From a virus (taxonomy: Duplodnaviria; Caudoviricetes): DNA of 64,000 bases. Of the stretch, positions 5,193 to 58,963 are shown piece after piece (position 1 is the stretch's first letter; each line of letters opens with the position of its first letter). Made by a program: the position numbers and the translations under genes. The DNA lies in IMG/VR virus record IMGVR_UViG_3300025392_000232, positions 31,129 to 95,128 of that record. One strand, written 5' to 3'. The notes below the pieces were generated by a model. The model saw only the letters and a list, made by a program, of their open reading frames with translations, ran no database searches and was not told where the DNA came from.

Positions 5193-5785
5193 TAATATTC
5201 ACCTATGTTTTTAAGATATACAGTAGCACCTGCATTTACAGTCCATGCTTCGATAACTTCAATTTTTCCATTAGCTACTGATACAGTTGGAGGAGTTGTT
5301 CCGCCCGACCAACCAGTTGCAGTTCTGAATGTTCCGCCACCCGATGTTGCTAGCGTAGTAGTGTATGTACTAATTCCTCCTACTAACAAAATTTTAACAA
5401 CCGCGTATTGATTATTAGCAGGCCAATTGGTAAATGTTAGTACAGCATTGCCTCCAAGTGTAACTTGTTGGATAGGACCATTATTTAAATCAATGTTTGT
5501 GCTGGCCGCAACAGTTCCATTATTAAAGAATTTACCGTTAAATTGATAATAAATTCCGTTATGTAGCGTAGTACTTAACAAGTCGGTAGTACCAGAAAAT
5601 GTGTCATCATTTCCAAAACTAGCAACTCTTATAGCATTAGCCTGTAGAGTAGTAATTTCTGTTTGTGCAGATGCCAGTGCGGATTGGATAGCTGTGAAAT
5701 TATCACGGAATCCTTGGCTGTCGTTATCTTGCCCTGCTACCGGGTAAGTTGTACTAATTGTAGAGGGGTTTATCAAACTTGTCAT
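5192..5785 (-). CDS. Putative virion structural protein
   Basis: YPVAGQDNDSQGFRDNF N-terminus, coiled coil, T/G/N-rich beta region; lies in the tail operon. Confidence 0.65.
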   Translation of the reverse strand: MTSLINPSTISTTYPVAGQDNDSQGFRDNFTAIQSALASAQTEITTLQANAIRVASFGNDDTFSGTTDLLSTTLHNGIYYQFNGKFFNNGTVAASTNIDLNNGPIQQVTLGGNAVLTFTNWPANNQYAVVKILLVGGISTYTTTLATSGGGTFRTATGWSGGTTPPTVSVANGKIEVIEAWTVNAGATVYLKNIGEY

Positions 5786-32158: not shown

Positions 32159-33037
32159 CCGCTCATTTTCCTTAATAAATTTGAAAATTTCATGGGCCAT
32201 CAGTCTATAACCTTCTCTGCTAGGATGCATACAATTGGTAATGTATTTTGAAGGCCATTCCAATTTTGAGTAATAATCGTGATATGCACCCAACGCCAAT
32301 TCTTCGTGATTTTCGTGTCCTTCAAACTTCAGTAGCAAATGCATAAAGCTGTTACAATTTTGGGGATATAAGAAGTTGCCCCACGGAATAGAATCAACCA
32401 AATCTGTAAAGTCTCTATCTGTTTTATTAATATTTTTAACAAATGAATCTCTCGTAATCCTTTGATCAAACGCACTAGCAATTATTAATTGCCAGCCATT
32501 GGCTTTACAAATCATTTCGGCTTCACGTAAGTTTAATAATGTTTCTAATGCTACAAATCGTTCACTCCAAATATCTTCTGCGTACACAGTCCATAAAGAT
32601 TTATTAGTGGTATTCTTATCCCACGGATTTGGCCACATGGCAAAGAAGTGTGATGTGTCAGGAAAGTCTCGATTAATAAAATCAAATCTTTCCATGCCAC
32701 TTAACATATACACTACAATTACTTCGCTAGCATTACTAAGTTTGATTTCAGGATTAAGATACAGTTCTTTAACAGATGCGCGATTACCCCTGCCCATTTG
32801 ACCTAAGTTAATAGGAAGCCAGCCGTGTAAGTAACGATTGCACAGTTGAGATACCCAACTGTTTTCATACATTTCAGATTTAATACTATCAGGTATGTTT
32901 AATGGATCTATCCATCCATTAAATTTTTTATATGTTTCGTCACTCCAGCTACCGACACCTTGGGTAAAACTATCTCCCAATCCTACTATAACTTTAGCAC
33001 CCTTGTGTATTTCAGGTAATTCTCTAACCCACATCAC
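32150..33037 (-). CDS. SGNH/GDSL hydrolase-like protein
   Basis: GDSFTQG, NLG...GN, HPSREGY. Confidence 0.7.
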   Translation of the reverse strand: MMWVRELPEIHKGAKVIVGLGDSFTQGVGSWSDETYKKFNGWIDPLNIPDSIKSEMYENSWVSQLCNRYLHGWLPINLGQMGRGNRASVKELYLNPEIKLSNASEVIVVYMLSGMERFDFINRDFPDTSHFFAMWPNPWDKNTTNKSLWTVYAEDIWSERFVALETLLNLREAEMICKANGWQLIIASAFDQRITRDSFVKNINKTDRDFTDLVDSIPWGNFLYPQNCNSFMHLLLKFEGHENHEELALGAYHDYYSKLEWPSKYITNCMHPSREGYRLMAHEIFKFIKENERLT

Positions 33038-34284
33038 TTGTCCTTAAAATAATCGTTATAATAATTTATCAATTCGGTATGTGCCTTTACATCTTTATGT
33101 TCGCTAGCACAGAACACTTGATAGTTATGTTCTAAAATGTTGCGCATGGATTCATACCATTTGACTTTATCTTCAATAGCATCTATTTGTTTAATAGCAC
33201 TAATAATTGCTTCAAATCTTTGAAAAGTGGGCAAGTCATCGTAACTTTCATCTATAAAACCTTCAAATGTTTTGTAACCCATTTCTCTTAATTTTTTAAG
33301 ACTGCCACGATTACCTAATATGATGAATGGATGCATACACGCAATAGGTTTAAAAATCTTTTCACTTAAGAATAATGTATGTTCGCTATCTACAAAACTA
33401 GCTTCGCTTACCACGCTTACCCATGTATCTAAACAAACTTTATCTAGTATGCGATTAATATAATGCTGATCGTCTTTAACATTATTAGGCTCACCGTGTA
33501 CTACTAATGGTAATAGTTTCCCTGCTTCTTCTAACAATGCTTGCGGAGGTTTAACTCCGTCAATATTAGGTATATGTGTGCCGTAACTGTTAGTACTGAC
33601 TAAACCTGAGTCTAGCAAGTTATTTTTATATAGATACAAGTAAAACCAACTACGGTGAACACGTTGCCGTTTTTGCAAACAGTTATATGTTTTAATTGGG
33701 TTGGTAAGTTTATATTCTAAATTAGCATCAAAGTTGGATACTAAATTCATACGTTTGGCAATTTGTTGTATGTCACGTTCAAAGTGCATATAAGGAATAA
33801 CTTTTATCCTATCTGATATATGATTGTACTTAGCCCATTCGTTATACTGTTCGTCGGCTATCATATTGCCGGTAACATATACTATTGCTTGCGGTGCAAC
33901 ATTATATTTGTTACAATCCTCATGGAAGAATTCCCATAGCCATTCTGTTTGGTAGCCTTCTAGGCTTTGATCTAACACTAGTAATGCCTTACCTTGTTGT
34001 AATCGTTCTAGATATTGTGTACTAATATTTTCTAATACACTTGTACCCGAGTACTTACCAATAGCCCAATCGTCTGGATGATGGTTAACACCCGATGCTA
34101 TGATACAGTTGTTGGGTATTTGGTCGCTAGAGTATACACGACTATTGCCGGAATATTTTACTCTACGGGTTAATGCACTGGCAATAACCGCAGGCGCAAA
34201 ACGTCTAATGCCCGACTTGTTTACATCCGGGCATTGAGTGAAGTTCGTTATATTATTAGTATCTTCAAATACAAAGTTTATCAC
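33034..34284 (-). CDS. Hypothetical protein, possibly glycosyltransferase-like
   Basis: VVSE...LSEKIFKPI...HPF...GYKTF...DESYD C-terminal motif; adjacent to an epimerase. Confidence 0.5.
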   Translation of the reverse strand: MINFVFEDTNNITNFTQCPDVNKSGIRRFAPAVIASALTRRVKYSGNSRVYSSDQIPNNCIIASGVNHHPDDWAIGKYSGTSVLENISTQYLERLQQGKALLVLDQSLEGYQTEWLWEFFHEDCNKYNVAPQAIVYVTGNMIADEQYNEWAKYNHISDRIKVIPYMHFERDIQQIAKRMNLVSNFDANLEYKLTNPIKTYNCLQKRQRVHRSWFYLYLYKNNLLDSGLVSTNSYGTHIPNIDGVKPPQALLEEAGKLLPLVVHGEPNNVKDDQHYINRILDKVCLDTWVSVVSEASFVDSEHTLFLSEKIFKPIACMHPFIILGNRGSLKKLREMGYKTFEGFIDESYDDLPTFQRFEAIISAIKQIDAIEDKVKWYESMRNILEHNYQVFCASEHKDVKAHTELINYYNDYFKDK

Positions 34285-35282
34285 ATTAATCTATCTTTCC
34301 AAGTAGTTGGAGTTTTATCATTAACAATCTCTAATGGGAATGTATAGTCAAATGGTTTTGTTCCTCTGCTACGTATCCAATCAGCAGTGGCTTTAATAGA
34401 AGTTTTTAAATCAACTGTAGTTTTATAACCGAGTACATTTCTAGCTAAGTTAGCTGAACAAGTTGCAATCTTAACTTCTTTTGGACGATCTGGTAAGTAA
34501 ATCGGGTCGCCGACAAAATCACATTCTTCTGCAACTAATTTTGCTAGTTCGTTAATAGTAACAGTACCTTCATCAGGCCCGATGTTGATTACTTGCTCAA
34601 TAAGATTTTCATCTAATATTAATTTTTCTAAACAATATATGCAGTCGTCAATATAACTAAAGCAACGTGCCTGTGTGCCATCTCCGTAAATGTATGCAGG
34701 TTTGTTCTGCAAATTACGATTGATCATAATACTCATAACATTACGGAACGGGTCATCGTAGCGTTGACGTGGACCTACAATATTATGCGGGACAGCAATG
34801 TTCCACTCCATGCCGTGTGTCTGGCATAACGATACAAGTGTATTTTCTACTGCTACTTTAGCAATACCATACGGATCGCATGGTTGTGGAGTAAACCATT
34901 CTTCGAACGGAGCTTCCACGTTTCCGTATCTTGCCATACTTGAGCAGAATACAAAACGTTTTACCTTAGCACGGATAGCGGCACTGATAGTAGATATACT
35001 TGCTTGATATATATTTTTAGTAATAAAGTTAGGACTGAATACACTTAGCCCTTCATGTGCGGTGGCGGCACAATGCACAACAGTATCACAGTCCTTCATG
35101 GCATCTGTCATTTCAGCAAGACTACAACAATCGATATTATAGAACTTTACTTTAGAATTAATATTATCAACATACCCGCCTAATAAATTATCATTGCCTA
35201 CTACGGTATGCCCTAGCTCGATCATACGATCTGCTAAATGGCTACCTAGGAACCCTGCAACTCCTGTAATAAAAATCTTCAT
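34281..35282 (-). CDS. NAD-dependent nucleotide-sugar epimerase/dehydratase
   Basis: GVAGFLG Rossmann motif, SSMARYG, YGIAK. Confidence 0.92.
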   Translation of the reverse strand: MKIFITGVAGFLGSHLADRMIELGHTVVGNDNLLGGYVDNINSKVKFYNIDCCSLAEMTDAMKDCDTVVHCAATAHEGLSVFSPNFITKNIYQASISTISAAIRAKVKRFVFCSSMARYGNVEAPFEEWFTPQPCDPYGIAKVAVENTLVSLCQTHGMEWNIAVPHNIVGPRQRYDDPFRNVMSIMINRNLQNKPAYIYGDGTQARCFSYIDDCIYCLEKLILDENLIEQVINIGPDEGTVTINELAKLVAEECDFVGDPIYLPDRPKEVKIATCSANLARNVLGYKTTVDLKTSIKATADWIRSRGTKPFDYTFPLEIVNDKTPTTWKDRLM

Positions 35283-36640
35283 AGTTTGCTACACATATTA
35301 TAAAATTCCAGCATCTCTGGAAATGTTTCTGCAAAGTTAGTATTACGGCGTACATCGTGTTCAGTAAACCAGTTGTAAAAATCTTTGCGGCCTTCTTTTA
35401 ATTTATCATCTGGATAAACAGTAGTCTCCATATATTTGACTACACGCCTAAACTTTTCGTATTCAATTTCTGTAAATTGATTACTAGCATTGTTATTTAA
35501 ATTTGCTTGCATAAAGGCTAGACTTTCATCCATATAAGGCATAAAATCTTCTTTGGGCAATATATTCATATCGTATTGTAACGGTTCCTTTAGATAAGGA
35601 GTATCAAAACGAATACGATGCTTACCTGTTTCATACCAGTCATACTGGGTACGCCATTCAAGCAACTTTTCTAAAAATGATCTAAAACTGCTTACAGCCA
35701 GTACATTAAATGTAATCATGAATGTAAGCGGATTATTTGTTGTACTTAGATAGGTATGGAAATTTTCCTGCCATGCTTCTAAATTTAGACCAGTACGTAT
35801 GTACTCGGCTCTAGGACCCCAAGTGTCTAAACTAGTGAATAGTTTGAAACTACGGATCTTACCTTCGCTACGCAATTTTTCTACTTTCTCTGCTAGACGT
35901 TTAACCAGTACAGGTTTAACACCTAAATTACTGTTAATGTTTAATTCTAAATTAGGTAGTGGATTCTTGTCCAAGTCTTCTAGTAAGCGCCATGTACTAG
36001 CTTGTAACAACGGCTCGCCGCCTGTAACACGTAAGATGTTTAAAGTTTGCTTGACTTGTGGCCACCACTTCCACCATGCATCTACATAAGGATTTGATTC
36101 TTCTTCGTAGATAATAAGTTTGTCTATACCAAAGTGGTGATTCTTAACAGGATAAGGCCCGTATTGTTTTATTTCTTTATAATAAGCACTGGACGCTTTT
36201 GGGTGACAGTACCCGCATTTAAAATTACACTCATTGCCAAAACTTACTTCGATATATTCTGGATTAATATTAAAGTCGGGCCCCTCGTTGAAAATCTCAT
36301 CAAAGCGTTCTTTAGTGTAGATACCAGCATTACGTTCATGCCTGTCGCTAATGTAGTCTGCACCTAATGCTTCTATATTCCAGCAGTACTGACATCCGTC
36401 TGGCTTTTCGCCGTTAAGCATAAGAAGACGTTGTGTTTTCTTTTCACTAGTGTTGTGTATAGCACTAGGATTTGTTTTAATTTCTTCTAGTGGAATAGTA
36501 TGTGGTGCTGGATGATAGCAACTATGTGTTTCGCCCGACTGTAAGTAGATAGTCGTATGATGCCACTTAGCCAAACAAAAAGTTGGACTAAGTGTATCGG
36601 TTATATTTTTTATCTCTATAATGCGTTTTTTAGGATCCAC
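35279..36640 (-). CDS. Radical SAM protein with an N-terminal SPASM/twitch-like Cys domain
   Basis: CNFKCGYC, GGEP; N-terminal C...SCYH...CQYC. Confidence 0.88.
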   Translation of the reverse strand: MDPKKRIIEIKNITDTLSPTFCLAKWHHTTIYLQSGETHSCYHPAPHTIPLEEIKTNPSAIHNTSEKKTQRLLMLNGEKPDGCQYCWNIEALGADYISDRHERNAGIYTKERFDEIFNEGPDFNINPEYIEVSFGNECNFKCGYCHPKASSAYYKEIKQYGPYPVKNHHFGIDKLIIYEEESNPYVDAWWKWWPQVKQTLNILRVTGGEPLLQASTWRLLEDLDKNPLPNLELNINSNLGVKPVLVKRLAEKVEKLRSEGKIRSFKLFTSLDTWGPRAEYIRTGLNLEAWQENFHTYLSTTNNPLTFMITFNVLAVSSFRSFLEKLLEWRTQYDWYETGKHRIRFDTPYLKEPLQYDMNILPKEDFMPYMDESLAFMQANLNNNASNQFTEIEYEKFRRVVKYMETTVYPDDKLKEGRKDFYNWFTEHDVRRNTNFAETFPEMLEFYNMCSKL

Positions 36641-36641
36641 A

Positions 36642-37475
36642 TTATGTCCATAGGCTTTGTCGAATTTTGATTAAACGAATCATCATTTCTTCTTCTTCTT
36701 TTTCATAAGCCTCTTCCATTTCACGAAGTGCTTTGTGTGCGGCTTCGCTTTTGGCCTTAAGCTCAGGGGTATCTTTGCCGCCACTCCAGCTTAGTTTGCC
36801 ACCGTTAGCCGCACGACTTTCTTCACAGTAGGTAGTCCAGCCACTGGCTTCATATGGGTCAGGACGATTACGATAGACAGTAGTCCACCAAGTATAAAGT
36901 TCGATAATCTCTTTAGCGGCCGTAGCTTGATAAGTTGGTTCTGCTAGATGCTTCTCGCCTTCGTCTAGGAATTCTGCATTAGTTAGTGTACTAGCCCAGT
37001 TCAGATACGCCATACCAGCTTCTGGACTGCGCCAAGTACGCCAACGCAACCAACCACTGCGATACCAAGGAACATCAAACTTTTTACGTTCCTCGTCATT
37101 CCACATTACATAGTGCCACGCTTGTTCGATTTCAACGAAGTTGACAAGTTCGTTAAAAAGACAAGGGAGAAACCTATTACCAACGTCACTCCAACTGCCA
37201 GGGCGGATATCACGAGTATCGGCAGTAAGAGCGTGACTCTTACTAACCCAACGATTATTGATGTAGTATCTGACGTCATTTAGTCGATCCGGTATGTAGT
37301 AAACAATTTTTTGTAGAATGTCTAATCCTTCTTCAGCTATCCAGTAACGGATAGGATGTGCGGCACCAGCAGTCTTATACCACTCGTCCCATTCTTCGCT
37401 AGTACCTGCACCTAGTTTAGGTGTGCCACGAAGCCAGTCTGCAAATTTTGAGCAAGTCCAATAATGTGATCTCAT
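36642..37475 (-). CDS. Trp-rich phage hypothetical protein
   Basis: Long ORF, operon-coupled. Confidence 0.8.
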   Translation of the reverse strand: MRSHYWTCSKFADWLRGTPKLGAGTSEEWDEWYKTAGAAHPIRYWIAEEGLDILQKIVYYIPDRLNDVRYYINNRWVSKSHALTADTRDIRPGSWSDVGNRFLPCLFNELVNFVEIEQAWHYVMWNDEERKKFDVPWYRSGWLRWRTWRSPEAGMAYLNWASTLTNAEFLDEGEKHLAEPTYQATAAKEIIELYTWWTTVYRNRPDPYEASGWTTYCEESRAANGGKLSWSGGKDTPELKAKSEAAHKALREMEEAYEKEEEEMMIRLIKIRQSLWT

Positions 37476-38998
37476 ATTACTACCTTATTTTTAATCCATT
37501 CGTCTACTGTAGGATACATTATAACATTTTTTTGATAGAATTCAACAGTCTTTTGGTGTAATTGTTTGCCTTCTTCCAAAAAAAGATAGTTAGTTTTTTT
37601 AAGATTAGCTGTATCAAACATGTTTAAACCTTGAATTACAGTAACCCATGCCGCACTACTGTATCCATGTGTCCGGGGTTGAGCAGTATTTTCTAAATAA
37701 TATAACTTCCAACCTTCTAGTTTTTCAGATAATGAATCTGGAATTCTAAATTGATCATAGCAGTGGCTCTTCCAAAATTCTGTATCATTCCTGTGTCCTC
37801 GATAATGAAGACACAAGTAGTCCCTGATATCAATAATAACATTCCAAATTTTGTCATTCATGATATCGAAATCTTCTTGTGTAGTATTGTGTGGATTCCA
37901 ATTACTATACAGACTTTGCAATGTATCTACAATTACTGCAATACCGTTGGCTTCTAACGGCTCCATGAATCCTGTACTTAGTCCTACACCAACAACATTT
38001 TTAACAATAAAGTTTTTCATCATACCAGGTTTGATGTTTAACTTTGCAATAGGTTCAATATGATTACCAAATGTATTGTGTATTTCTTCAAGTGCTTGAT
38101 CTTCGGTGAGATGTTCTGGATCATACAAATAACCGTTGCCGCTACGATGACAAAGATTAATATTCCAACTCCAACCATATTTCATAGCACGGGCATTAGT
38201 AGTAACTTGATATTTAGGTTCGTCCCACCAAGCAATCACACTTCGTGCAGGAAAATAATTACCAAAGTCTACTATTGGTTCTTTTAATACTTTACCTAAC
38301 AGTAAACTAGCAAATCCGCTACAATCAAAAAACCAATCTGCTGTATGAGACGATCCGTCTTTTAAAAAGATAGAGTTTATATTACCAGATTCGTCTTGAC
38401 CAGAATGTATGTATTCTCCCAGTATTAATTTTATACCTTTTGATAGACCTAGCTCTTTTAAGTACGCGGCATTTTCTCTACTTTCATAGTGCCACATACA
38501 TCCAATATCCAATGGACTAGTTGCATCCAATGGCACTCTGTTCTGTTTAATAAATTCTCCAGCATAAAATGCATCGGATAATGGAATGTCGTTAGCTATT
38601 AGTGTCTTAAAATATAATTCCTTACTTTGTAGTCCACTAGACCTATTCAATAAGTCTAGTATACTCATACTAGATAAATCAGAAAAATTTGATTCTATGC
38701 CATCTGGGATTAACTCGGTTTGTAGTGCATGGATGAATTCTGTTCCGACACCATTCCAATTGGTAAACTTTCCTCCTAGCTTGGGAGTAGCATTTACTTT
38801 TATCAACCAGTCGGCCACACTTATATCCAAGTATGCAAATAATTTTAATAGTGTTGATGTTCCACTTTCACCGGCTATAATTGGAGGGCGGTTTGGATCT
38901 TCAATTAATTCAATAGAAATATCTTTATAAGTCTTTTGTAAGAATAATGCCGTAAGCCATCCGGCAGTCCCGCCGCCAAGTACGACAATTTTTTTCAT
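37472..38998 (-). CDS. Flavin-dependent tryptophan halogenase-family protein
   Basis: GGGTAGW, GES, ATPKLG, DCSGF, WSWNI, GFMEPLEA. Confidence 0.88.
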   Translation of the reverse strand: MKKIVVLGGGTAGWLTALFLQKTYKDISIELIEDPNRPPIIAGESGTSTLLKLFAYLDISVADWLIKVNATPKLGGKFTNWNGVGTEFIHALQTELIPDGIESNFSDLSSMSILDLLNRSSGLQSKELYFKTLIANDIPLSDAFYAGEFIKQNRVPLDATSPLDIGCMWHYESRENAAYLKELGLSKGIKLILGEYIHSGQDESGNINSIFLKDGSSHTADWFFDCSGFASLLLGKVLKEPIVDFGNYFPARSVIAWWDEPKYQVTTNARAMKYGWSWNINLCHRSGNGYLYDPEHLTEDQALEEIHNTFGNHIEPIAKLNIKPGMMKNFIVKNVVGVGLSTGFMEPLEANGIAVIVDTLQSLYSNWNPHNTTQEDFDIMNDKIWNVIIDIRDYLCLHYRGHRNDTEFWKSHCYDQFRIPDSLSEKLEGWKLYYLENTAQPRTHGYSSAAWVTVIQGLNMFDTANLKKTNYLFLEEGKQLHQKTVEFYQKNVIMYPTVDEWIKNKVVI

Positions 38999-50120: not shown

Positions 50121-50339
50121 CTACAACCTATAAGTTACTCTACCTTTGGTGAGGTCATACGGACTAACCTCTAACCTAACATTATCCCCTAGGATAATGC
50201 GAATTTTGTTTTGCTTCAATTTACCGCCCATGTAACATAGTAATGGATTCGGCATGTTTTCTACTTTGACCCTAAACATATTTCCGGGTAATACTTCCTC
50301 TACCGAGCCTGTTAATTCAATAATATCGTCTTTAGCCAT
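50121..50339 (-). CDS. infA: Translation initiation factor IF-1 (72 aa, start MAKDDIIE)
   Basis: GSVEEVLPGNMFRV...GKLKQNKIRIILGDNVRLEVSPYDLTKGRVTYR. Confidence 0.95.
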   Translation of the reverse strand: MAKDDIIELTGSVEEVLPGNMFRVKVENMPNPLLCYMGGKLKQNKIRIILGDNVRLEVSPYDLTKGRVTYRL

Positions 50340-50505
50340 TAGTTGCTTTTGTAATGGACCAAGCACCATTGCCCATATCGTTCCATTCCAATGTATCTCC
50401 TTCTTTCCAACCTTGTAAATCTAGTAAGTCTTGAGGTAACGGAAGAATTAAATCCCCGCTACTATCATCTGCTTCTCCGACTGTTACTGTCCAGTTTGTT
50501 TTCAT
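50332..50505 (-). CDS. AbrB/MazE/SpoVT-like small protein, 57 aa, not in the ORF track
   Basis: Hand translation GDLILPLPQDLLDLQGWKEGDTLEW; promoter TTGACT-17-TATAAT at 50511-50539. Confidence 0.75.
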   Translation of the reverse strand: MKTNWTVTVGEADDSSGDLILPLPQDLLDLQGWKEGDTLEWNDMGNGAWSITKATNG

Positions 50506-50589: not shown

Positions 50590-51327
50590 ATGCTAAGTGT
50601 TCCAAAACAATATCTATATTTGGTTGTTGATCAAACTAATAAGTGTGTAATAACAACCACTAATAGCATTAGTACTGCTAATGCTGTTTCTAACGGAATT
50701 CTAAATAGCTCTCCTATGGTTGTTTGGTTTCCATATTTTGATACAAAACATGATATCATACAAGCCAACAAAAATGAAAATATAAACTATAAATTAGTTA
50801 GACAAATTGGTAAACATATTGACAAGGGTGGTGTTACAATCTCCGATACACACATGTTTGAACCTGTTGAAAAGACACCTTCAGGCAAGATGTTTGATTT
50901 AGTTGAAATGGATAAAGATTTGATCACCGATGAATGGATTGTACGCAGGCGGCTGGGAAATTTTAGAGCCAGTTTAATGATGGAGCTCGAAATGTATTGC
51001 GAAAGATATCTTTCAAGAGCTGTAGAATTTTGTGGCGACGAGCTATTATTTCCGTATCTTCAAAAACAAATAGAATTGTCTAATCCAACACTAGGTATCT
51101 ATGCACCGGGTATACAGGAATGGGCATTAATTAATGAAATCTCTGTTGCTAATGCATATCAAGAATTAAAATTAAAATACGACTCTGCGTGTATCACTGC
51201 AATGCGTATACATTCTTTTTGGAATAAATTTGTTAATAAGTTTAATACTATCACATTAGATGATAATCAAACTCGTAGCGAAATATTTAAAAGAATGGAA
51301 GCATATTTTATATTTGGTGATATATGA
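50590..51327 (+). CDS. Hypothetical protein, partner of the downstream PP-loop enzyme
   Basis: TATAAATA at 50577-50584, 5 nt before the ATG. Confidence 0.75.
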   Translation: MLSVPKQYLYLVVDQTNKCVITTTNSISTANAVSNGILNSSPMVVWFPYFDTKHDIIQANKNENINYKLVRQIGKHIDKGGVTISDTHMFEPVEKTPSGKMFDLVEMDKDLITDEWIVRRRLGNFRASLMMELEMYCERYLSRAVEFCGDELLFPYLQKQIELSNPTLGIYAPGIQEWALINEISVANAYQELKLKYDSACITAMRIHSFWNKFVNKFNTITLDDNQTRSEIFKRMEAYFIFGDI

Positions 51328-52418
51328 ATCAACTATGCATAAGCACAATATACGAATTAAGGGATAGATTTACTTTATTTAAAGACTACCCAGATATTAA
51401 ATTTTTTGAAGAAATAACAAATAAAACTTCAGGTATATGGATGGTTGATCGCACAAGTACCATACAACTTCCATTTAGGACCAAATTACTTGAAAAACAT
51501 AGACTTCCAGATTTAACCGATATTGAAAGTCTATCATTAGAACAATGTTGTATGAATCGTTCTAGGGATTTACTAACTGGAGATTTAACACTTTATTTTT
51601 TGTATAGCGGTGGCATCGATTCTACACTTGCATTATCTTCATTTATTAAAGCAGGCGCACCCCGCGATAAACTAATAGTAGTTTGTAATGCTGATAGTAT
51701 AAGAGAAAATCCTAATTTCTATCATATATACATAAAACCAAATTTTAATTTGATGTCGTCTGAATTATTCATGCAGACTATAAAAACACAAGAGCTAGAC
51801 GGACAAGTTATACTATGCGAGCCTGGAGATGCATTATATGGTCAACACCTTATGTCGATTGCATTTTCAATGTTTGGCGGCGATTATCTTGAAAAACCAG
51901 CTACTAGACAAACTCTAGTAGATTTTTTCAAAGCAAGGGGTCTAGATAATCTAACAGCCAATTGTTGTTTTGATATGTATGCATCTGAAATGTCTCCTCG
52001 ACCGATAGAGACACTATATGATTTTTTCTGGTGGACGCATTTTAATTGGCGTTGGCAATATAATTGTGAAAAACTAAGCCTCCGGACTTTGCTAAATCCT
52101 AAAATAGAACCATTTTATTCTACTCCAGAATTCCAAAAATGGGCAGTAACACATGATCAGCCTAGGATTAGTACACCTGGCGACTTCAAAAAAGATTATA
52201 AACAATTAATATATGATTTTACAAAAGATCGAGAGTATTTTAATTTAAAAATTAAACATACATCATCGAGCTATTTTTATTTAAACGGAGCCTGCGTAGC
52301 AGTAGACGCCGATGGTACTAGATTGAAGTCAAAAGATTTTTCTTTAATGGACTATTATCAACCAGACAATTTTATCTCTAATTGGATCAAAGATAATTGT
52401 CGTCGCTATACGGTATAG
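51324..52418 (+). CDS. PP-loop (asparagine synthetase-like) ATP pyrophosphatase
   Basis: LYSGGIDST, CEPGDALYG, DFFWW. Confidence 0.75.
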   Translation: MNQLCISTIYELRDRFTLFKDYPDIKFFEEITNKTSGIWMVDRTSTIQLPFRTKLLEKHRLPDLTDIESLSLEQCCMNRSRDLLTGDLTLYFLYSGGIDSTLALSSFIKAGAPRDKLIVVCNADSIRENPNFYHIYIKPNFNLMSSELFMQTIKTQELDGQVILCEPGDALYGQHLMSIAFSMFGGDYLEKPATRQTLVDFFKARGLDNLTANCCFDMYASEMSPRPIETLYDFFWWTHFNWRWQYNCEKLSLRTLLNPKIEPFYSTPEFQKWAVTHDQPRISTPGDFKKDYKQLIYDFTKDREYFNLKIKHTSSSYFYLNGACVAVDADGTRLKSKDFSLMDYYQPDNFISNWIKDNCRRYTV

Positions 52419-52797
52419 GAAACCATCCTAGCTTGTCGAGATCCTCGAGTATTTCATCTGTTACTACACCTTCGGACGCATACTTAGTTCGTTCAAAATA
52501 CTCGTCATCATCTTTACCGTCAAAGCTCAGCCCTCCACGCATACCACTACAGTAATAGTCCATGTAGTCTTCTCCCTGGTTACGAAGGTCAGCTACGATT
52601 CCACCGGCGCCACGCCAACTAGCAGTCCAATATTCTTCTTTGAGTATGGGCCATACATTTTTAGAATCACGTTTACACCATTGCATGTTACACCAAGCCG
52701 CATACAAGTTCTGTGCATAGGCTTTATCCTCGGCACGAATCTTGGCCATTATTTCGGGGCTATTTCGAATGTCTTCAACTAAATCTTGTCTTTTCAT
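52387..52797 (-). CDS. Phage hypothetical protein
   Basis: YAQNLYAAWCN...SWRGAGGIVADLR...DYMDYYCSG. Confidence 0.8.
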   Translation of the reverse strand: MKRQDLVEDIRNSPEIMAKIRAEDKAYAQNLYAAWCNMQWCKRDSKNVWPILKEEYWTASWRGAGGIVADLRNQGEDYMDYYCSGMRGGLSFDGKDDDEYFERTKYASEGVVTDEILEDLDKLGWFPIPYSDDNYL

Positions 52798-53126
52798 TTA
52801 TGCCACGGGCCTTGGAAACAGTGTCGCATTTCGTGGCCTACTGCCCACATGGTCGTGTTTCGTGCTGTAATAACTGTACAAGTTGGTTGACCTTGCGGAC
52901 CTTTGTCCCAAAAGCTACAGGCTTCAACAGTATAACCAAATCCGCCAAACTTACGTTTACGACTTTCTGCTTCACATCGAGCTTGTACATTGTCTACTGG
53001 GAACCATGAGACAGCAACTTCAGTTGTATAGTTTTGATTTGTACTGAATAGTACGTTTGGATCATCACGTTCTACAGCGAATGCAGAACTGCTTAATAAT
53101 GCTATTACTAACAATGCCTTTTTCAT
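52794..53126 (-). CDS. Secreted small protein with HExxH
   Basis: Signal peptide ending AFA; GHEMRHC. Confidence 0.7.
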   Translation of the reverse strand: MKKALLVIALLSSSAFAVERDDPNVLFSTNQNYTTEVAVSWFPVDNVQARCEAESRKRKFGGFGYTVEACSFWDKGPQGQPTCTVITARNTTMWAVGHEMRHCFQGPWHK

Positions 53127-53150
53127 ACTAGCCTTTCTGTGTGCCTAAAT

Positions 53151-53246
53151 TGGTGTGGGCGGTAGGATTCGAACCTACAAAGGCAGTCTAAGACCAAGCC
53201 CCGTACCCGGCAAGCCGGAGGTCTACCATATTCCACTCACGTCCAC
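53151..53246 (-). tRNA. Non-canonical tRNA-like RNA (Leu-type body, no regular anticodon arm)
   Basis: Acceptor GTGGACG/CGCCCAC-A-CCA, D loop GGAATATGGTAGAC, T arm GTAGG-TTCGAAT-CCTAC; 96 nt. Confidence 0.75.
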
Positions 53247-53252
53247 ATTATA

Positions 53253-53281
53253 ATTATATGTGAATTATTAATAAATGTCAA
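53253..53281 (-). promoter_or_regulatory. Consensus sigma70 promoter for the tRNA-like RNA
   Basis: TTGACA-17-TATAAT; G1 lies 7 nt downstream of the -10 box. Confidence 0.9.
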
Positions 53282-53727: not shown

Positions 53728-54216
53728 TTATTCCTTTACTACACCTACTAAATGTAATCTTGCTTCCGAACTACAATTCATAAAAGTATGGTGTTGACGA
53801 GTATCTACCCAAAACACATGATCTTGTTTTAGATGAGATACCATACCTCTTTGAAACACAAAAAAACACTGATCGTTTGTAATAATGGGGATATGTATCC
53901 TGGGACTAATATCTCGATGCATACTATAGCAGGTCTTTGGTCCGACCCATAAAAATCTAGTTCGGGTTAGATTATATTTCTTAATAATTGTTTCAAATAC
54001 AGAACCTTGAAAAAACATGTTTAAGTTAGTATATTCTAAATCTCGACCTTTACTAGTTCCTACTGCGCTAGACCACGGGTCTTCTTGTTCTAAATATTGT
54101 AGTCCAGCTTGTCTATTATTAGATCCAAACTCTGTCCATTGAATTTTTTCTTCTATAGATTTATATGTTTCTGTTAAACTAGCAGAATTGCATGTGTCTA
54201 TAATTTTAATTAACAT
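53728..54216 (-). CDS. 2OG-Fe(II) oxygenase, Asp/Asn beta-hydroxylase-like (probable start MLIKII)
   Basis: HRD...RIHIPI...HTFMN...RLHLV. Confidence 0.8.
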   Translation of the reverse strand: MLIKIIDTCNSASLTETYKSIEEKIQWTEFGSNNRQAGLQYLEQEDPWSSAVGTSKGRDLEYTNLNMFFQGSVFETIIKKYNLTRTRFLWVGPKTCYSMHRDISPRIHIPIITNDQCFFVFQRGMVSHLKQDHVFWVDTRQHHTFMNCSSEARLHLVGVVKE

Positions 54217-54217
54217 A

Positions 54218-55477
54218 TCAAATAGCCATGTCTTGTTCAATTCTACTCAAATCTACATTTCCAAAATCTAATATTAAATCTGAAGAAACAGAATTATTTG
54301 GTAAGAATTTATTAACTGGCCCTAGGGAATAAAATTTCTTCCAAATTTTAAAACCTAGCAACCCTTTATACTTGTGTATATTAAGATATTTTTTATCTAT
54401 CGAGCCTATCAAATTATCCAAATCACTTTGCATCATTTGTGCGGCATGAGTTCCTGAATGTAGATTATAGAACCATGCATCATGCCGACCTAAAAACATT
54501 CTATCCGGCTTTTGTGCTTGGAAAGATAATTTCTTGATTGCAGGGTATATTGCAGGTACAATCCCACGTTCGTATACTCCGCCGTTGACTTCTTTAAATA
54601 CATGCCCAATAGGATTGAATGCCGATTTGTTTCCTTTTTCATCATTAAATCGCATGGCACTATACGCCTCACTGCCAGCCGGTGTCATTAAGAATTTAGC
54701 AGTTTCGTGTGCTTGTTTAACTATTAGCTGTGGTAGCTGTGGACTGTGATAAAAGAATACAGCAAATGTGTTAGGATGGTTAACTGAATTATATTTGTTG
54801 CTATACACAGTATCGTAAAATGAAATTAAAAAATTATTCTTATATCTAACAACCGCAGGTTTATCGATACCTTGTACAATGGCAATCTTTTTTCCAGATT
54901 CTGCAATATGTTTTAGATAGGTATAACGGTCTAAGTTATAACGCCCAGCCATAGTAGGATGTAACCAATCGTTACATTTTAACAACCACATATCAGGTTC
55001 GTAATTTAACATATCTTCAAAATAGTCATGCAACGTTACTTTAATTTTTGGATAGTTATCCTTAATCTTTTGCATGAATGGCAACTGTGTGTGAAATGTT
55101 TCGTCGATAGTATTTGTTACATCTTGATTAGTTGGATCTGACTTCCAGTCTCTAAGACCACTAAGCGGAGCACTTGCTACAACTTCGTCTACATGCAAAC
55201 CATTATTAACAAATGCATAAAACATGTTGGTGCTGTCTGCACCTCCGCTAAGGAACATTAATACATAGTCGTATTCATCTCTAATCTGCCTAGCACGTTC
55301 AGCATATAGTTCATCTAAAGTCTGTGTAGGTTCAGTTTTCCAATCAGTAGCTTGAAATACAGCATCATTAAAATTCCAGACTGGATCAACATTTAATTGC
55401 TGTGCTCTAAATAGAGCAGGAATTTTTTCATAAAACTTTTCAGTGCCGACAGTATAAAATCCTAAATCATCAATCAT
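54218..55477 (-). CDS. PP-loop (adenine nucleotide alpha-hydrolase) enzyme
   Basis: LSGGADSTN, GIDKP. Confidence 0.7.
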   Translation of the reverse strand: MIDDLGFYTVGTEKFYEKIPALFRAQQLNVDPVWNFNDAVFQATDWKTEPTQTLDELYAERARQIRDEYDYVLMFLSGGADSTNMFYAFVNNGLHVDEVVASAPLSGLRDWKSDPTNQDVTNTIDETFHTQLPFMQKIKDNYPKIKVTLHDYFEDMLNYEPDMWLLKCNDWLHPTMAGRYNLDRYTYLKHIAESGKKIAIVQGIDKPAVVRYKNNFLISFYDTVYSNKYNSVNHPNTFAVFFYHSPQLPQLIVKQAHETAKFLMTPAGSEAYSAMRFNDEKGNKSAFNPIGHVFKEVNGGVYERGIVPAIYPAIKKLSFQAQKPDRMFLGRHDAWFYNLHSGTHAAQMMQSDLDNLIGSIDKKYLNIHKYKGLLGFKIWKKFYSLGPVNKFLPNNSVSSDLILDFGNVDLSRIEQDMAI

Positions 55478-56757
55478 TTTAATATTCCTATATCTCTTCT
55501 GTATCTAAATTGGCCTATATGTTGCTTATCAAGATATGCATAAAGTTTTTTACTAGCCGCTTCGTGTGTATTATCAGTCGCTGTAAAAATTGAATGTTTG
55601 ATATACGGAGGATCAAACCCTTCCAAACCCATAATAATATCTTCCGGAACAGGCTCTAACTTGGGTAAGAAACTAGCAGGCTTAGTCCAATCAAATACTC
55701 TGTTAGCTAATTTAATAGTTACTGTCTTTTTATTATTATGTACAATTTTAGGAATTTTATTTCCACAACTTGCGGCATAAAATAGCTCGCCTAAATCGTT
55801 TGTAATTGATCCTAATATAGCTGGGAGTTCCGGATCTCCGCTACGTGTATTAATTTCAAGTATAATTGGAGTGTCCGTTTCATCGACTGCTATACCTAAA
55901 AACATAAAACCTTTATAATGACAGTTTTTAATTTTTAAATAATTATAAATTTTATCTGCATACTCATGCACCCGGGGATCGATATCATTAACATTATATG
56001 CACCCATACTACAACTATTAAATCCTAAGTCATTATCTAAAGACTTTTTGTAATCTCTTGCAGATCCAAAGTATTCCCAGCCCGAATCATTTACTAACAT
56101 GTGATAAGAATATTCTCTTTTAATATTAACAACTTCTTCGAGTACAATACTTGCATTAAGATCAATATTAGTAATCTTAGGTTCGTCTCTAAGATGTGTA
56201 CTAAACAAATCGTTAAAAACTTCTTCGTAATTTAAATTATCTACGACTGTAGTTTGCCTACCACTTTGAAATAGATAATTTAATTTAACCACAAATGGAC
56301 GAGGAATAGTTTTAAAATTTTCGTAAAGATATTGTCCGGACACTAACTTACCTTTTCCTGTAGGTATTCCTAATTCATTAAGTATTTGCTTGGTAATGAA
56401 CTTGTCTTTTTCTAAAATAGTATTATCTGGAGTTACAAAGAAGTAAGGAATATTGGCCAATCGAAATGCATCGTGTGCATATTGTGTGGACGGCCAAGGC
56501 AAACTTGCTGCCACAACAAAACTTATATCTTTATCTTTTATGAACTCAATTAGCTGATCTACATTTATCTTTGGTATTTCGGATATAATTGTAGGGTTTC
56601 CGCTACTGCCGTCAACATTTCGAGATATAGGAATATAATTTTCAGTACGCTTAATTGACTTATGTGCGCCTACATGATAAACTTTATGTCCTTGTTGAAC
56701 AAATAGTTGAGCCCAGTGATGATAACATCCGGTTGGTGATAACACTAATATATTCAT
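55474..56757 (-). CDS. ATP-grasp ligase, diverged PurD (GARS)-like
   Basis: LEKDKFITKQIL..LGIPT, EYS, RDYKK...SMGAY, LEINTRSGDPE. Confidence 0.8.
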   Translation of the reverse strand: MNILVLSPTGCYHHWAQLFVQQGHKVYHVGAHKSIKRTENYIPISRNVDGSSGNPTIISEIPKINVDQLIEFIKDKDISFVVAASLPWPSTQYAHDAFRLANIPYFFVTPDNTILEKDKFITKQILNELGIPTGKGKLVSGQYLYENFKTIPRPFVVKLNYLFQSGRQTTVVDNLNYEEVFNDLFSTHLRDEPKITNIDLNASIVLEEVVNIKREYSYHMLVNDSGWEYFGSARDYKKSLDNDLGFNSCSMGAYNVNDIDPRVHEYADKIYNYLKIKNCHYKGFMFLGIAVDETDTPIILEINTRSGDPELPAILGSITNDLGELFYAASCGNKIPKIVHNNKKTVTIKLANRVFDWTKPASFLPKLEPVPEDIIMGLEGFDPPYIKHSIFTATDNTHEAASKKLYAYLDKQHIGQFRYRRDIGILK

Positions 56758-57549
56758 TTATTTCTTTCTAAGCAAACATATAATCCAATATGTAGGATCT
56801 AGTTCCCACCAGCGTCGTCCACCATAATTTGGATTCTTTGCATCACCATGATGATTGTTATGCCAACATTCACCCTGTGTAATTAAAAACAACCAAGGAA
56901 TATTTGCACTAGTATCTTTTGTATTGTAATTTTTATAACCTAACTTTTCATAGTGTACCACACTTGTTTGTAAACAAAATACATGAAGTGTAATAAATGC
57001 CGGAAGTGCTAGCAGATAAAAGAAGGCATCTACGCTAATTAATGCAGTTACACCGTATACGGCCCACAGTAGGTAACTATAGTATTTGTGTACAAACACA
57101 TGGTCTGGATCTCGTAATAAGTCTGGAATACTACGTACTGGAACATCACCCTCTTTCATTTTAAACATCCACAAGATGTAACTATGCCAAAAACCATCTT
57201 CTGGGCTGTGCGGGTCTTTATCAGTATCGCTAAATCTGTGGTGCAGGCCGCGATGTATACCGACCCACAATATACTACTACCTTGTCCAGCAATCGCACC
57301 GCAAAATAATATAAATCTTTTCATAAATTTGCTTACGGGAAATCCATGGTGACTAAACAGTCTGTGATAACCGGCGCCAACTCCTACAAATTTCATAAAG
57401 ATCCAACCGACTATTGTAGCCATCCACCACCAGCTAGGTGCGTTACCAATACAAATATTATAAATTGCCCATACTCCAAAAATATTTAGAGGAATAATTC
57501 CGCCCCATAAGTGTTTTATAGTCAGCGTATTCTTTAACATTTGATTCAT
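56758..57549 (-). CDS. Membrane fatty-acid desaturase (delta-9 type; probable start MNQML)
   Basis: His boxes HRLFSH, HRGLHH, HNNHH; DPHSP. Confidence 0.9.
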   Translation of the reverse strand: MNQMLKNTLTIKHLWGGIIPLNIFGVWAIYNICIGNAPSWWWMATIVGWIFMKFVGVGAGYHRLFSHHGFPVSKFMKRFILFCGAIAGQGSSILWVGIHRGLHHRFSDTDKDPHSPEDGFWHSYILWMFKMKEGDVPVRSIPDLLRDPDHVFVHKYYSYLLWAVYGVTALISVDAFFYLLALPAFITLHVFCLQTSVVHYEKLGYKNYNTKDTSANIPWLFLITQGECWHNNHHGDAKNPNYGGRRWWELDPTYWIICLLRKK

Positions 57550-58088
57550 TTTCGTTTCCATGTGTTTAATAGGGTAATATCGCCACTGTAAATAATAGTT
57601 TGCCAACAGGTATTGTCGCATTCATTTGGGCATGTAAGGTATTTATAGTTGTCTGTTTCGAAGATCAAATTAAATTGTTTTTCAAAATTTTCAATCACCC
57701 ATTTATCCCAATTATTTGTTTGTCTGCTAATAAAGTATAGTTTACAGCTGGTATGTTCTGCCAACCAGTTAATTTGGCTCTTTGCACTACAACCCATGCA
57801 GTCACTTATTTTCTTTAAAAATGACTTTTTGTTATTAGGTTTCCACGCACGGTTCAATATACGATACGCTTCACTCGGCCAGCAATCTCTGTTACTAATA
57901 CTAGAACAAAGTTCTGGAACATCATCATCGTCAAAATGAATAGTTAGTGCAACTGCAAATTGAAAAGACTCTCGATCGTAGTTCTTCCACAGTCGATGAC
58001 TACGGTCGTTATACTGTACTTCTCTCAATTGATCAAACAATGCATCGTATTCAGAGTTAGTGCCTGGAGCCCATGTTATAGTACGCAT
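57546..58088 (-). CDS. Hypothetical protein, possibly GNAT-like
   Basis: Operon-coupled ORF; the fold call is a weak impression only. Confidence 0.5.
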   Translation of the reverse strand: MRTITWAPGTNSEYDALFDQLREVQYNDRSHRLWKNYDRESFQFAVALTIHFDDDDVPELCSSISNRDCWPSEAYRILNRAWKPNNKKSFLKKISDCMGCSAKSQINWLAEHTSCKLYFISRQTNNWDKWVIENFEKQFNLIFETDNYKYLTCPNECDNTCWQTIIYSGDITLLNTWKRK

Positions 58089-58963
58089 TAAGATTCCATC
58101 CGTTTCAACATTTCAAAGAATGGCTCGCGATGTACTCCCCACCAGTCTTTTTCAAATTGATTAAAAATTTGTAAATTTTTATGCTGATAGATTGGACTTT
58201 TTTCTATATTCTCGTATCCAGTGAATTTGGGTCGTTCGGCCATATTGAACGGAGCAAGGCTGTTTAATATTTTCCACTTGGTACTATTACTGCCCAGTTT
58301 ACCTGGAATTTTGTTATTTGCTAGGTCAGCCATTAGCGGACTTTGCATATAGGACAGATATTGTTCAGCAGTATATGTTAAGAAGAACGGGCATCCATAT
58401 AAGTTATTTTTTCTAAAATAATCTAAGCAAGGCCAAATAGGCTCGTATTCGTCAACGTACCATATGCCTGTAGCTTCATCCTTAGCTATGTGCGGTACAC
58501 TATGACTACCCATAATAATAGTGCCGTCCACTTTGCCCAATGCATACAGTGTTGATGGAATCTGGTAAGTGGCTAGTTTATATTCTTGACCAATGTCAGA
58601 TATTAGACCTGACTTAACAAAATCATCAAAGTCAATATCTATAATAATAGGTGAAAGATTTTTACTTTTGCAAAAGTCAAACGCATATTTTACATCGTGA
58701 TCGTTGTAGCCAGGGTTTAATTTAATAATAACAGGCACAACATCTATGCCCATTGATAAAAATACATTTAATACAAACTCGCTATCTACACCGCCGCTAT
58801 ACATTAAGTGTAATTTGCCACGCTTGTTGTTGTAAACATACTCGGCAACTTTCAAACACTCTTGCAAGTAGTTGGGCTTTTTATTTGTAGGTGCATCGAT
58901 AGCTACATGGAAAGTATCTCCACTTCCGCTTGGGCGCATATAGTTGTCTTTAAGTAATTCCAT
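58088..58963 (-). CDS. PP-loop enzyme
   Basis: MYSGGVDSE; C-terminal RPKFTGYE. Confidence 0.7.
   Translation of the reverse strand: MELLKDNYMRPSGSGDTFHVAIDAPTNKKPNYLQECLKVAEYVYNNKRGKLHLMYSGGVDSEFVLNVFLSMGIDVVPVIIKLNPGYNDHDVKYAFDFCKSKNLSPIIIDIDFDDFVKSGLISDIGQEYKLATYQIPSTLYALGKVDGTIIMGSHSVPHIAKDEATGIWYVDEYEPIWPCLDYFRKNNLYGCPFFLTYTAEQYLSYMQSPLMADLANNKIPGKLGSNSTKWKILNSLAPFNMAERPKFTGYENIEKSPIYQHKNLQIFNQFEKDWWGVHREPFFEMLKRMES

Follow-up and report, generated by a model that had tools for sequence, protein, structure and literature searches.

The tRNA-Like RNA Gene and Its Surroundings

The window, i.e., the whole 64,000-nt stretch of DNA analyzed here, is the final 64 kb of an IMG/VR virus record that is 95 kb long. 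With a completeness of 26% according to CheckV, the record represents only part of a very large phage genome, and this phage has no close cultured relative, since its DNA ligase shares at most 35% identity with any ligase in a collection of cultured phages (~50,700 records). A tRNA-like RNA of 96 nt is encoded on the minus strand at positions 53151–53246, extending from G1 (53246) to the A of an encoded CCA (53151). This RNA scored 106.1 bits with the family's covariance model (R1, see below) and was the only R1 match in the 95-kb record. Upstream of G1 lies a promoter consisting of a −35 hexamer (TTGACA; 53276–53281) and, after a 17-nt spacer, a −10 hexamer (TATAAT; 53253–53258) that ends 6 nt before G1. 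Both hexamers are on the minus strand and together match the consensus at 12 of 12 positions.

The 5′ strand of the acceptor stem (GUGGACG; 53240–53246) pairs with 53155–53161 to form a 7-bp helix containing one mismatch, A5·C68, that was missing from the original prediction. It is followed by U8, G9 and a Leu-type D arm of the form AGUG-GAAUAUGGUAG-ACCU (together 53219–53239; the D arm itself occupies 53237–53219), by a first hairpin (hairpin 1; CCGG-CUUG-CCGG, 53207–53218) that sits at the anticodon-arm position without an anticodon, and by a GUAC linker (53203–53206). A second arm (arm 2; 53180–53202) occupies the position of a class II variable arm and reads GGGGC-UU-GGUC-UUA-GACU-GCCUU, i.e., an outer stem (GGGGC/GCCUU), a UU bulge, an inner stem (GGUC/GACU) and a UUA triloop. 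A lone U (53179), the counterpart of U48, separates arm 2 from the T arm (GUAGG-UUCGAAU-CCUAC; 53162–53178), and the RNA closes with the 3′ acceptor strand CGCCCAC, A73 (53154) and the CCA (together 53151–53161). All of these elements lie on the minus strand. The motifs and coordinates that had been listed from the letters of the window, namely the encoded CCA, A73, a Leu-type D loop, a perfect T arm, the CUUG-capped hairpin at 53218–53207, the longer arm after it and the promoter, were all confirmed on that strand.

The RNA is followed on the same strand by a 24-nt, A/U-rich spacer (53127–53150) that contains a Shine-Dalgarno (SD) sequence and no terminator. Beyond it lies the first gene of the operon (52794–53126), encoding a 110-aa secreted protein with four conserved Cys residues and an HExxHxxGxxH motif. 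By eye, the SD region appeared able to pair with the 3′ strand of arm 2, and an anti-SD-like ACCUCC was noticed as well; both were judged to be coincidences of G/C-rich stems. Just upstream of the RNA gene, the window encodes a GARS-like ATP-grasp protein, three PP-loop-like paralogues, an Asp/Asn-hydroxylase-like protein and a desaturase.

Relatives in Uncultured Giant Phages

Relatives were collected from IMG/VR with DNA patterns, each of which fixed one part of the sequence and left another free. A pattern spanning the D and T loops gave seven loci, and a relaxed version gave 73 loci that reduced to 44 distinct sequences of 96–114 nt. A third pattern, limited to the −10 box and nucleotides 1–16 of the RNA, matched at least 119 stretches and added at least 52 further members. 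More divergent members would be missed by such patterns. The family invariants described below held in the pattern-free parts, yet some of the invariance was imposed by the patterns themselves. The final alignment (A5) held 95 members, 84 of them distinct. The family thus has at least 84 distinct members, 96–118 nt in length, all of them in IMG/VR contigs of uncultured giant phages.

Model R1 was built from the 11 shortest forms, the window copy among them. Members scored 63.9–119.8 bits with it, as compared with at most 39.5 bits for genuine tRNAs of the same phage contigs. A DNA-pattern search of 185,579 bacterial and archaeal species genomes in GTDB (596 Gb) produced 23 matches, all due to chance, and the family was absent from these genomes. 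Together with the gap in scores between members and tRNAs, this places the feature far beyond chance. The family was also not detected among cultured phages (~50,700 records) by blastn with three members: the searches yielded either no match or the T arm of tRNA-Tyr alone. One such candidate, the tRNA-Tyr of phage PX29, was rejected as a relative because it shares just the T arm and the 3′ acceptor strand. Likewise, an exact search of IMG/VR with a 20-nt central motif gave no match, no relatives were reached in IMG/VR through a 140-aa upstream protein, and tblastn with the 419-aa PP-loop protein found no match in cultured phages. A motif of the 2023 IMG/VR structured-RNA catalogue, DNAVirus_2961, at times overlaps tRNA-Arg calls and is a candidate for the same family.

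Covariation and the Two Central Hairpins

In alignment A5, 97.1% of the cells in paired columns were standard pairs, compared with 32–50% in controls in which the 3′ partners were slid by 1–3 columns. Compensatory changes on both sides were seen at 20 of 29 pairs, and none of 500 shuffles matched the observed covariation score. All five variable helices covaried: the acceptor stem at 5 of 7 pairs (with 99.5% of its cells paired across the family), hairpin 1 at 4 of 6, the outer and inner stems of arm 2 at 4 of 5 and 4 of 4, and the T stem at 3 of 5. Two D-stem pairs showed no variation and were hence uninformative. Single-sequence folding was uninformative as well (z = +1.0), and the structure was assigned solely from covariation; RNAalifold run on the family independently recovered the acceptor stem, arm 2 and the T arm. 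Covariation of both central arms, proposed earlier as a check, was thus found in relatives.

Exactly two hairpins occupied the central region in 82 of the 84 distinct members. Hairpin 1 varied from 12 to 34 nt, carried 31 different caps (including UUCG, GNRA and CUUG) and in some members contained AGUA/GAA internal loops, and a 7-nt loop with U33 and R37 occurred in none of the 84. This free variation in length and cap indicates an RNA without an anticodon, in keeping with the original description of the window copy as lacking a normal anticodon arm; two hairpins stand there instead. In the linker behind hairpin 1, the G was kept in 80 members and the three nucleotides after it varied. Arm 2 kept a constant plan at 17–27 nt, with a triloop that was UUA in 44 members and CUA, AUU, GUA, AUA or AUG in others.

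The order of the elements, with hairpin 1 abutting the D stem and one invariant U separating arm 2 from the T stem, is that of a class II tRNA. The variable and anticodon arms are therefore not swapped, as had been suggested: hairpin 1 occupies the anticodon-arm site and arm 2 the class II variable-arm site. The CU-UAG-AC stretch of arm 2, once likened to a Leu(UAG) loop, is a coincidence, given that the triloop differs among relatives.

Promoter and Transcript

Promoter statistics were taken from the 44 sequences that had been collected without any promoter constraint. TTG was present at −35 to −33 in 43 of them, while T−12, A−11 and T−7, the 17-nt spacer and the distance to nucleotide 1 of the RNA were the same in all 44. 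Nucleotide 1 was G in 42 sequences and A in two, and position −1 was usually T. Judging from this fixed spacing, transcription should begin at acceptor nucleotide 1, and a start at that nucleotide would leave a 5′ end that is leaderless and independent of RNase P. The original prediction had held that a perfect promoter with its +1 at or near G1 argues against decay, and the conservation of promoter spacing in 44 of 44 relatives makes that argument stronger than first claimed.

At the other end, no terminator was found 3′ of the window RNA. Across the family, the first 12 nt after the CCA were 80% A+T, compared with 61% for the loci overall. Nearly every member with downstream sequence had an ORF on the same strand, usually starting 14–65 nt past the CCA.

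Leucine-Type Identity Features

Several parts of the RNA were invariant in all 84 distinct members, including U8, A10 G11 U12 G13, the AA and GG of the D loop, ACCU and the U before the T stem, as well as U54, U55, C56, A58, G4-C69, G7-C66, A73, C74 and C75; G57 was kept in 83 members and A76 in 81. Pair 3:70 was G-C in 49 members, A-U in 33 and G·U in two. The only synthetases known to ignore the anticodon are LeuRS, SerRS (with its requirement for G73) and AlaRS (with its requirement for G3·U70), and the combination of A73 with G-C or A-U at 3:70 leaves leucine as the sole plausible charge.

The determinants of bacterial LeuRS, as reported for Aquifex and summarized for E. coli, are A73, U8-A14, G18-U55, G19-C56, the orientation set by U48 and the variable arm, and a regular acceptor helix (PMC2377443). 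In Aquifex, U8-A14 and G18/G19 are critical and A15-U48 is not, although the latter belongs to the E. coli set; the enzyme can do without the anticodon loop, and deletion of the whole arm costs affinity only (PMC2377443). In the phage family, A73 was found in 84 of 84 members, and the core nucleotides U8-A14, G18-U55, G19-C56, A58 and A15-U48 were present and invariant at the sequence level. The family also resembles the isoacceptors of tRNA-Leu, in which variation spares the D and T arms and falls elsewhere (PMC2377443). The best canonical matches of R1 were tRNA-Leu in T4 (34.5 bits) and T5 (32 bits) and again tRNA-Leu in the genomes of the three relatives that were looked up. In addition, the D region was closest to that of the co-resident phage tRNA-Leu (score of 13, vs. 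at most 7 for other isotypes).

Three features count against a leucylated mimic. The U48 counterpart is invariant, but arm 2 (17–27 nt, bulged) is longer than Leu variable arms, and grafting of a longer Ser arm lowered both the kcat and the affinity of LeuRS in Aquifex (PMC2377443). Relative to phage tRNA-Leu, the D stem carries an extra nucleotide along with an invariant U·C mismatch. The acceptor stem of the window copy is interrupted by the A5·C68 mismatch. Taken as a whole, the leucine identity features noted originally in the window hold across the family, and they suggest that the RNA is probably leucylated by the LeuRS of the host.

Genomic Setting and a Possible Cis Role

Each of the 11 records checked contained exactly one copy of the RNA gene, including genomes of 364, 400 and 345 kb with completeness of 100, 100, and 94%, respectively. 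In relatives, the gene lay kilobases from the normal tRNA cluster. It always headed an operon, with at least six different downstream contexts (two main and at least four minor). The first downstream gene of 32 of the 84 distinct members, the window copy among them, encodes the ~110-aa secreted HExxHxxGxxH protein, followed in most loci examined by a ~185-aa protein, a small AbrB-like protein and a homologue of IF-1; in another 36 it encodes a 63-aa Lys/Ala-rich protein and is followed by ThyX. Upstream genes differed between relatives. The constant neighbors were those of the downstream operon only, and not one neighbor gene was common to the entire family. A divergent radical SAM gene adjoined the RNA in 42 of 84 members, but it was 37 kb away in one complete genome, and a GNAT pair stood beside the RNA only in relatives of the L002/L004 type.

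The main rival to a trans-acting RNA is a purely cis-acting 5′ module, which is favored by the unchanging location of the gene as the first element of an operon. By this account, a tRNA-shaped fold carried on, or cut from, the early operon transcript would serve as a stabilizer or processing signal for the downstream genes, in the manner of plant mitochondrial t-elements or the mascRNA module, and would have no role in trans. The RNA comes first in a same-strand gene array in every case, most often with the short spacer noted above and ahead of at least six kinds of downstream genes; no terminator stands behind it, and its 5′ end is base-paired from nucleotide 1. In E. coli, a base-paired 5′ end protects transcripts from decay that depends on the 5′ end. 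The closely following ORF and missing terminator count against a trans-acting mimic and also fit a cis role. Three observations are harder to accommodate. A generic stabilizer would be expected to recur, yet even genomes of 345–400 kb have one copy, which argues against a generic leader module. A simple hairpin would suffice, yet A73, CCA, U8, the D-loop GG and AA, U48 and the T loop are invariant. Lastly, without a 5′ leader there is nothing for RNase P to cut. Moreover, the single-stranded ACCA tail is strictly conserved, which speaks for the importance of a free 3′ end. On balance, we regard a purely cis-acting module as rather unlikely, at perhaps one chance in four.

An explanation built on the upstream genes fared much worse. 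It had been proposed, as one of two options, that the RNA is a non-ribosomal aminoacyl carrier for the flanking ligase cluster (the ATP-grasp, PP-loop and hydroxylase proteins), and the position of these genes and the desaturase just upstream in the window fits that idea. In relatives, however, the ATP-grasp, PP-loop and hydroxylase genes were not beside the RNA, where radical SAM genes (42/84), GNAT genes (L002/L004 type) and others stood instead. Furthermore, ATP-grasp and PP-loop enzymes activate carboxylates with ATP by themselves, and none is known to use an aminoacyl-tRNA. Without conserved linkage, the proposed tie to the flanking ligase cluster is largely refuted, and we consider it very improbable.

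Decoding tRNA, Intron, or Decay

With default settings, ARAGORN called neither a tRNA nor a tmRNA in the window copy, where a pseudo or undetermined tRNA had been expected, and the Rfam tRNA model (RF00005) gave 23.4 bits, below its gathering score of 29; no other Rfam family matched. None of 10 relatives reached the RF00005 gathering score. ARAGORN made no default call for 72 of the 84 distinct members and mis-called the other 12 as Arg(tcg), Pro(ggg) or undetermined. Several parts of a canonical tRNA are in place, including the 7-bp acceptor stem, the discriminator base, a UUCRANY T loop and the D-loop GG, but the canonical 5-bp/7-nt anticodon arm is not: hairpin 1 of the window copy is a 4-bp stem with a CUUG cap. 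An RNA with no anticodon arm cannot read codons.

A genuine decoding tRNA, either odd in architecture or rendered canonical by removal of an insert, as in the oversized, intron-bearing tRNAs of Lak phages, has a very small probability. Relaxed ARAGORN settings force a Gly(GCC) call on the window copy, at the price of two mismatches, and deletion of 18 nt creates a stem with a UCUUAGA loop. The same 18-nt solution, however, fails by eye in relative L003. With introns allowed, ARAGORN made no call in 56 of 84 members and spread the rest over eight isotypes, and ~1,000 internal deletions of the window copy gave just three calls (Arg(ccg) twice and "Stop"(tta) once). The hairpin-1 caps are tetraloops without the U33/R37 pattern, the arm-2 triloop is variable, and the ORFs of the window are intact under the standard code. 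A cloverleaf restored by intron removal had been named beforehand as an outcome that would speak against a non-decoding mimic, as had random decay of the central region in relatives. Neither was found: no cloverleaf was consistent across the 84 members, and the central arms covary.

A decaying tRNA pseudogene or integration-site remnant, for which one could cite the failure of default detectors and the acceptor-stem mismatch of the window copy, is excluded for practical purposes by the compensatory changes in every variable helix across 84 distinct sequences, and it also conflicts with the conserved promoter, the single copy in all records examined and the absence of the family from the 185,579 bacterial and archaeal species genomes. 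By these comparisons, the RNA is a selected one and not a decayed tRNA; in this respect, the original view of a non-decoding tRNA mimic that did not arise by simple decay is borne out.

Proposed Role of the RNA

The reading that we favor, and hold to be somewhat better than an even bet, is that the single-copy gene of the jumbo-phage contigs carrying it specifies a stable, non-decoding mimic of tRNA-Leu that is probably chargeable with leucine and acts in trans. Host sigma-70 RNA polymerase would start at acceptor nucleotide 1 from the near-consensus promoter, giving a 5′ triphosphate with no RNase P step, and would continue into the downstream operon. The RNA could then be released by cleavage in the A/U-rich spacer and trimming to the encoded CCA. 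The RNA retains the acceptor helix and A73-CCA, together with the D/T core of Leu type, U48 and the long extra arm, and its anticodon arm has shrunk to a capped hairpin of arbitrary length that makes codon reading impossible. Such an RNA might act in trans through proteins that handle tRNA-Leu, first among them the host LeuRS, which does not need the anticodon. Once charged, it may divert tRNA-attacking host factors, in the manner of a decoy or sponge, or provide a private supply of leucine that stays outside translation.

Counting against the trans-acting mimic is the search for a partner enzyme in the phage genomes. In up to 11 phage records, PF00133, PF03588, PF02388 and PF01743 were absent, and no LeuRS-type synthetase, L/F-transferase, FemAB or CCA-adding enzyme was found.

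Genes for tRNAs in phages are usually explained by codon usage or by the replacement of tRNAs that the host has destroyed. A tRNA-Leu body without an anticodon can do neither job, yet this one is conserved in a large group of giant phages and driven by one of the strongest possible promoters. We tentatively put forward, with a little less than even confidence, a more specific form of the proposal: a leucine-accepting, RNase P-free tRNA barred from decoding, made by jumbo phages early and in bulk, and used as a sponge or an aminoacyl carrier. If so, it would represent a new functional class, the "non-decoding tRNA." A sponge would absorb anti-phage enzymes of the host that are directed against the acceptor end or variable arm of class II tRNAs, and as a decoy the RNA would constitute an RNA-based counter-defense against the growing list of tRNA-targeting immunity systems. 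A carrier would provide a private aminoacyl supply for an as yet unrecognized phage transferase. Charging of the RNA, if it occurs, would show that phages turn aminoacylation to an end other than translation. Either way, the RNA is a compact (96–118 nt), testable object, and the family explains mis-annotations in phage contigs, i.e., the oversized "tRNA-Arg(TCG)" and "tRNA-Pro(GGG)" calls.

Comparison with Known Systems

The closest known RNAs are bacterial and phage class II tRNA-Leu species (RF00005), which share the 7-bp acceptor stem, A73-CCA, U8, a D loop of the type GGAAUUGGUAGAC, U48, a canonical T arm and a long extra arm placed between the "anticodon" helix and the T arm. The phage RNA differs in having a capped hairpin of variable length in place of the 5-bp/7-nt anticodon arm, an extra arm that is longer (17–27 nt) and internally bulged, the invariant D-stem U·C mismatch with its extra nucleotide, its own promoter with +1 at nucleotide 1, and a score under the Rfam threshold. 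As for the Lak-phage tRNAs, which are of an oversized, intron-containing type (PMC6784885), removal of an insert restores no cloverleaf or anticodon that is shared across the relatives of the phage RNA.

Stable RNAs of other phages offer a second comparison. RNA1, RNA2 and RNA3 of T5 and species 1 and 2 (rnaC, rnaD) of T4 are annotated as stable, in part tRNA-like RNAs of unknown function (NC_005859, NC_000866). They resemble the present family in being phage-encoded, non-decoding and 70–145 nt long, with some tRNA-like parts. Model R1 detected no homology, with 17.4 bits for rnaC, 11.5 for RNA1 and 11.2 for RNA2, vs. at least 63.9 for members. The T4 and T5 RNAs lie inside tRNA clusters and require processing at both ends, whereas the gene of this family is located away from the tRNA cluster, with its own promoter in front and an operon behind it.

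Other tRNA-shaped RNAs resemble the phage RNA in part. The tRNA-like domain of tmRNA likewise mimics the acceptor and T arms, is charged although it has no anticodon, and feeds into tRNA pathways. It has the Ala identity pair G3·U70, is assembled from both ends of the molecule and accompanies a tag reading frame and pseudoknots; the phage RNA has neither tag frame nor pseudoknots, 82 of 84 members carry G-C or A-U at 3:70, and neither the tmRNA search of ARAGORN nor Rfam gave a tmRNA match. In YrlA and other bacterial Y RNAs, the 5′ and 3′ ends form the Ro-binding stem and the tRNA-like module is internal and without CCA; the ends of the phage RNA instead form the acceptor stem with its ACCA, and Rfam returned no Y-RNA-type match at E values up to 10. 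Plant mitochondrial t-elements, the mascRNA of MALAT1 and the 3′ tRNA-like structures of plant viruses are tRNA-shaped signals attached to an mRNA or genome and read by tRNA enzymes. An anticodon arm is missing from some of them, and those of viruses are aminoacylated, but they are located at 3′ ends or depend on RNase P/Z cuts. The phage RNA, in contrast, comes from dsDNA phages and lies at the extreme 5′ end without a leader, and an ORF follows its encoded CCA.

Finally, charged tRNAs are known to be used off the ribosome. In S. aureus, a tRNA-Gly that keeps a normal anticodon arm serves FemXAB as aminoacyl donor. Mom of phage Mu, a GNAT enzyme, uses Gly-tRNA as the donor to modify DNA (PMC13219725). 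These donors differ from the phage RNA in retaining a normal anticodon arm, and in having a transferase partner of a kind not found for this family in the genomes searched. On the side of defense, Septu and retron-Eco7 cleave tRNA-Tyr, a class II tRNA, in its variable arm, and an extra phage tRNA counters them (PMC13096335). Both a decoy of the kind that would blunt Septu or retron-Eco7 and an aminoacyl donor of the kind used by Mu Mom fit known biology, and the leucine-type RNA described here may act as either.

Genes Surrounding the tRNA-like RNA

In the window, the first gene downstream of the tRNA-like RNA, a look-alike of tRNA-Leu that lacks an anticodon, encodes a secreted protein of 110 aa (52794-53126, minus strand). 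Along with a signal peptide and four conserved Cys residues, the protein carries the sequence GHExxHCxxGxxH at its C-terminal end, a zinc motif of the metzincin type (HExxHxxGxxH); in its mature form the chain is short, at only ~90 residues. It matched no entry in Pfam or PHROG and is retained in 32 related loci. A phage-encoded homolog of translation initiation factor IF-1 (50121-50369, minus strand; PF01176, E = 5e-18) was also identified. Among relatives, the IF-1 gene lies in the same operon as the RNA and a few genes downstream of it; in the window, two genes of the opposite strand (50590-52418) are interposed between the two.

The RNA is also flanked by genes for three proteins with an SGGxDS PP-loop motif (51324-52418, plus strand; 54218-55477 and 58088-58963, both minus strand), none of which had a match in Pfam or PHROG. 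Beside them are genes for a GARS-like ATP-grasp protein (55474-56757), an Asp/Asn-hydroxylase-like protein (53728-54240) and a fatty-acid-desaturase-like protein (56758-57621). Together, the PP-loop, ATP-grasp, hydroxylase-like and desaturase-like genes constitute a candidate small-molecule or modification cluster.

In half of the family of 84 relatives, a radical SAM gene is divergent from the RNA promoter (L003:4864-5835, minus strand, and 41 other loci). Its product is 318-366 aa long and carries a CNYNCSYCW motif, with no subfamily assigned. In one complete genome the radical SAM gene is located 37 kb from the tRNA-like RNA.

Other Genes of the Window

A 1464-aa protein (5782-10176, minus strand) has a complete animal haem peroxidase domain (E = 4e-116) together with an Ig-like He_PIG domain, an unusual protein for a phage. 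A single open reading frame (12251-25963, minus strand) encodes a product of 4570 aa. Genes for a tryptophan halogenase (E = 2e-81), a twitch-domain radical SAM protein (NF033640, E = 9e-98) and an NAD-dependent epimerase/dehydratase occur close to one another on the minus strand within 33034-38998, and may represent a phage-borne natural-product or sugar-modification set.

Variation of the RNA and Its 3′ Flank

One locus recovered by the search patterns (L088:4530-4690, plus strand), on a Gammaproteobacteria MAG contig, was rejected as a chance match; the contig has a tRNA-Val with a duplicated tRNA 5′ fragment upstream, which looks like an integration-site scar.

In one subfamily of the RNA, the acceptor sequence is GUGGUCG and the next gene downstream encodes a 63-aa Lys/Ala-rich protein. 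In the members inspected, a small hairpin with AUAAGUAG occurs 5-25 nt 3′ of the encoded CCA (e.g., L017:5634-5665, plus strand; L005 downstream of 8819, minus strand). This hairpin was ruled out as a terminator because it has no U-tract.

In some family members, a long form of hairpin 1, the capped hairpin at the anticodon-arm position, contains an AGUA/GAA internal loop (L126:4390-4507, L150, L169 and L136). By eye, this loop matches the sequence signature of the loop E / sarcin-ricin motif, so that hairpin 1 may be more than a stub in those lineages.
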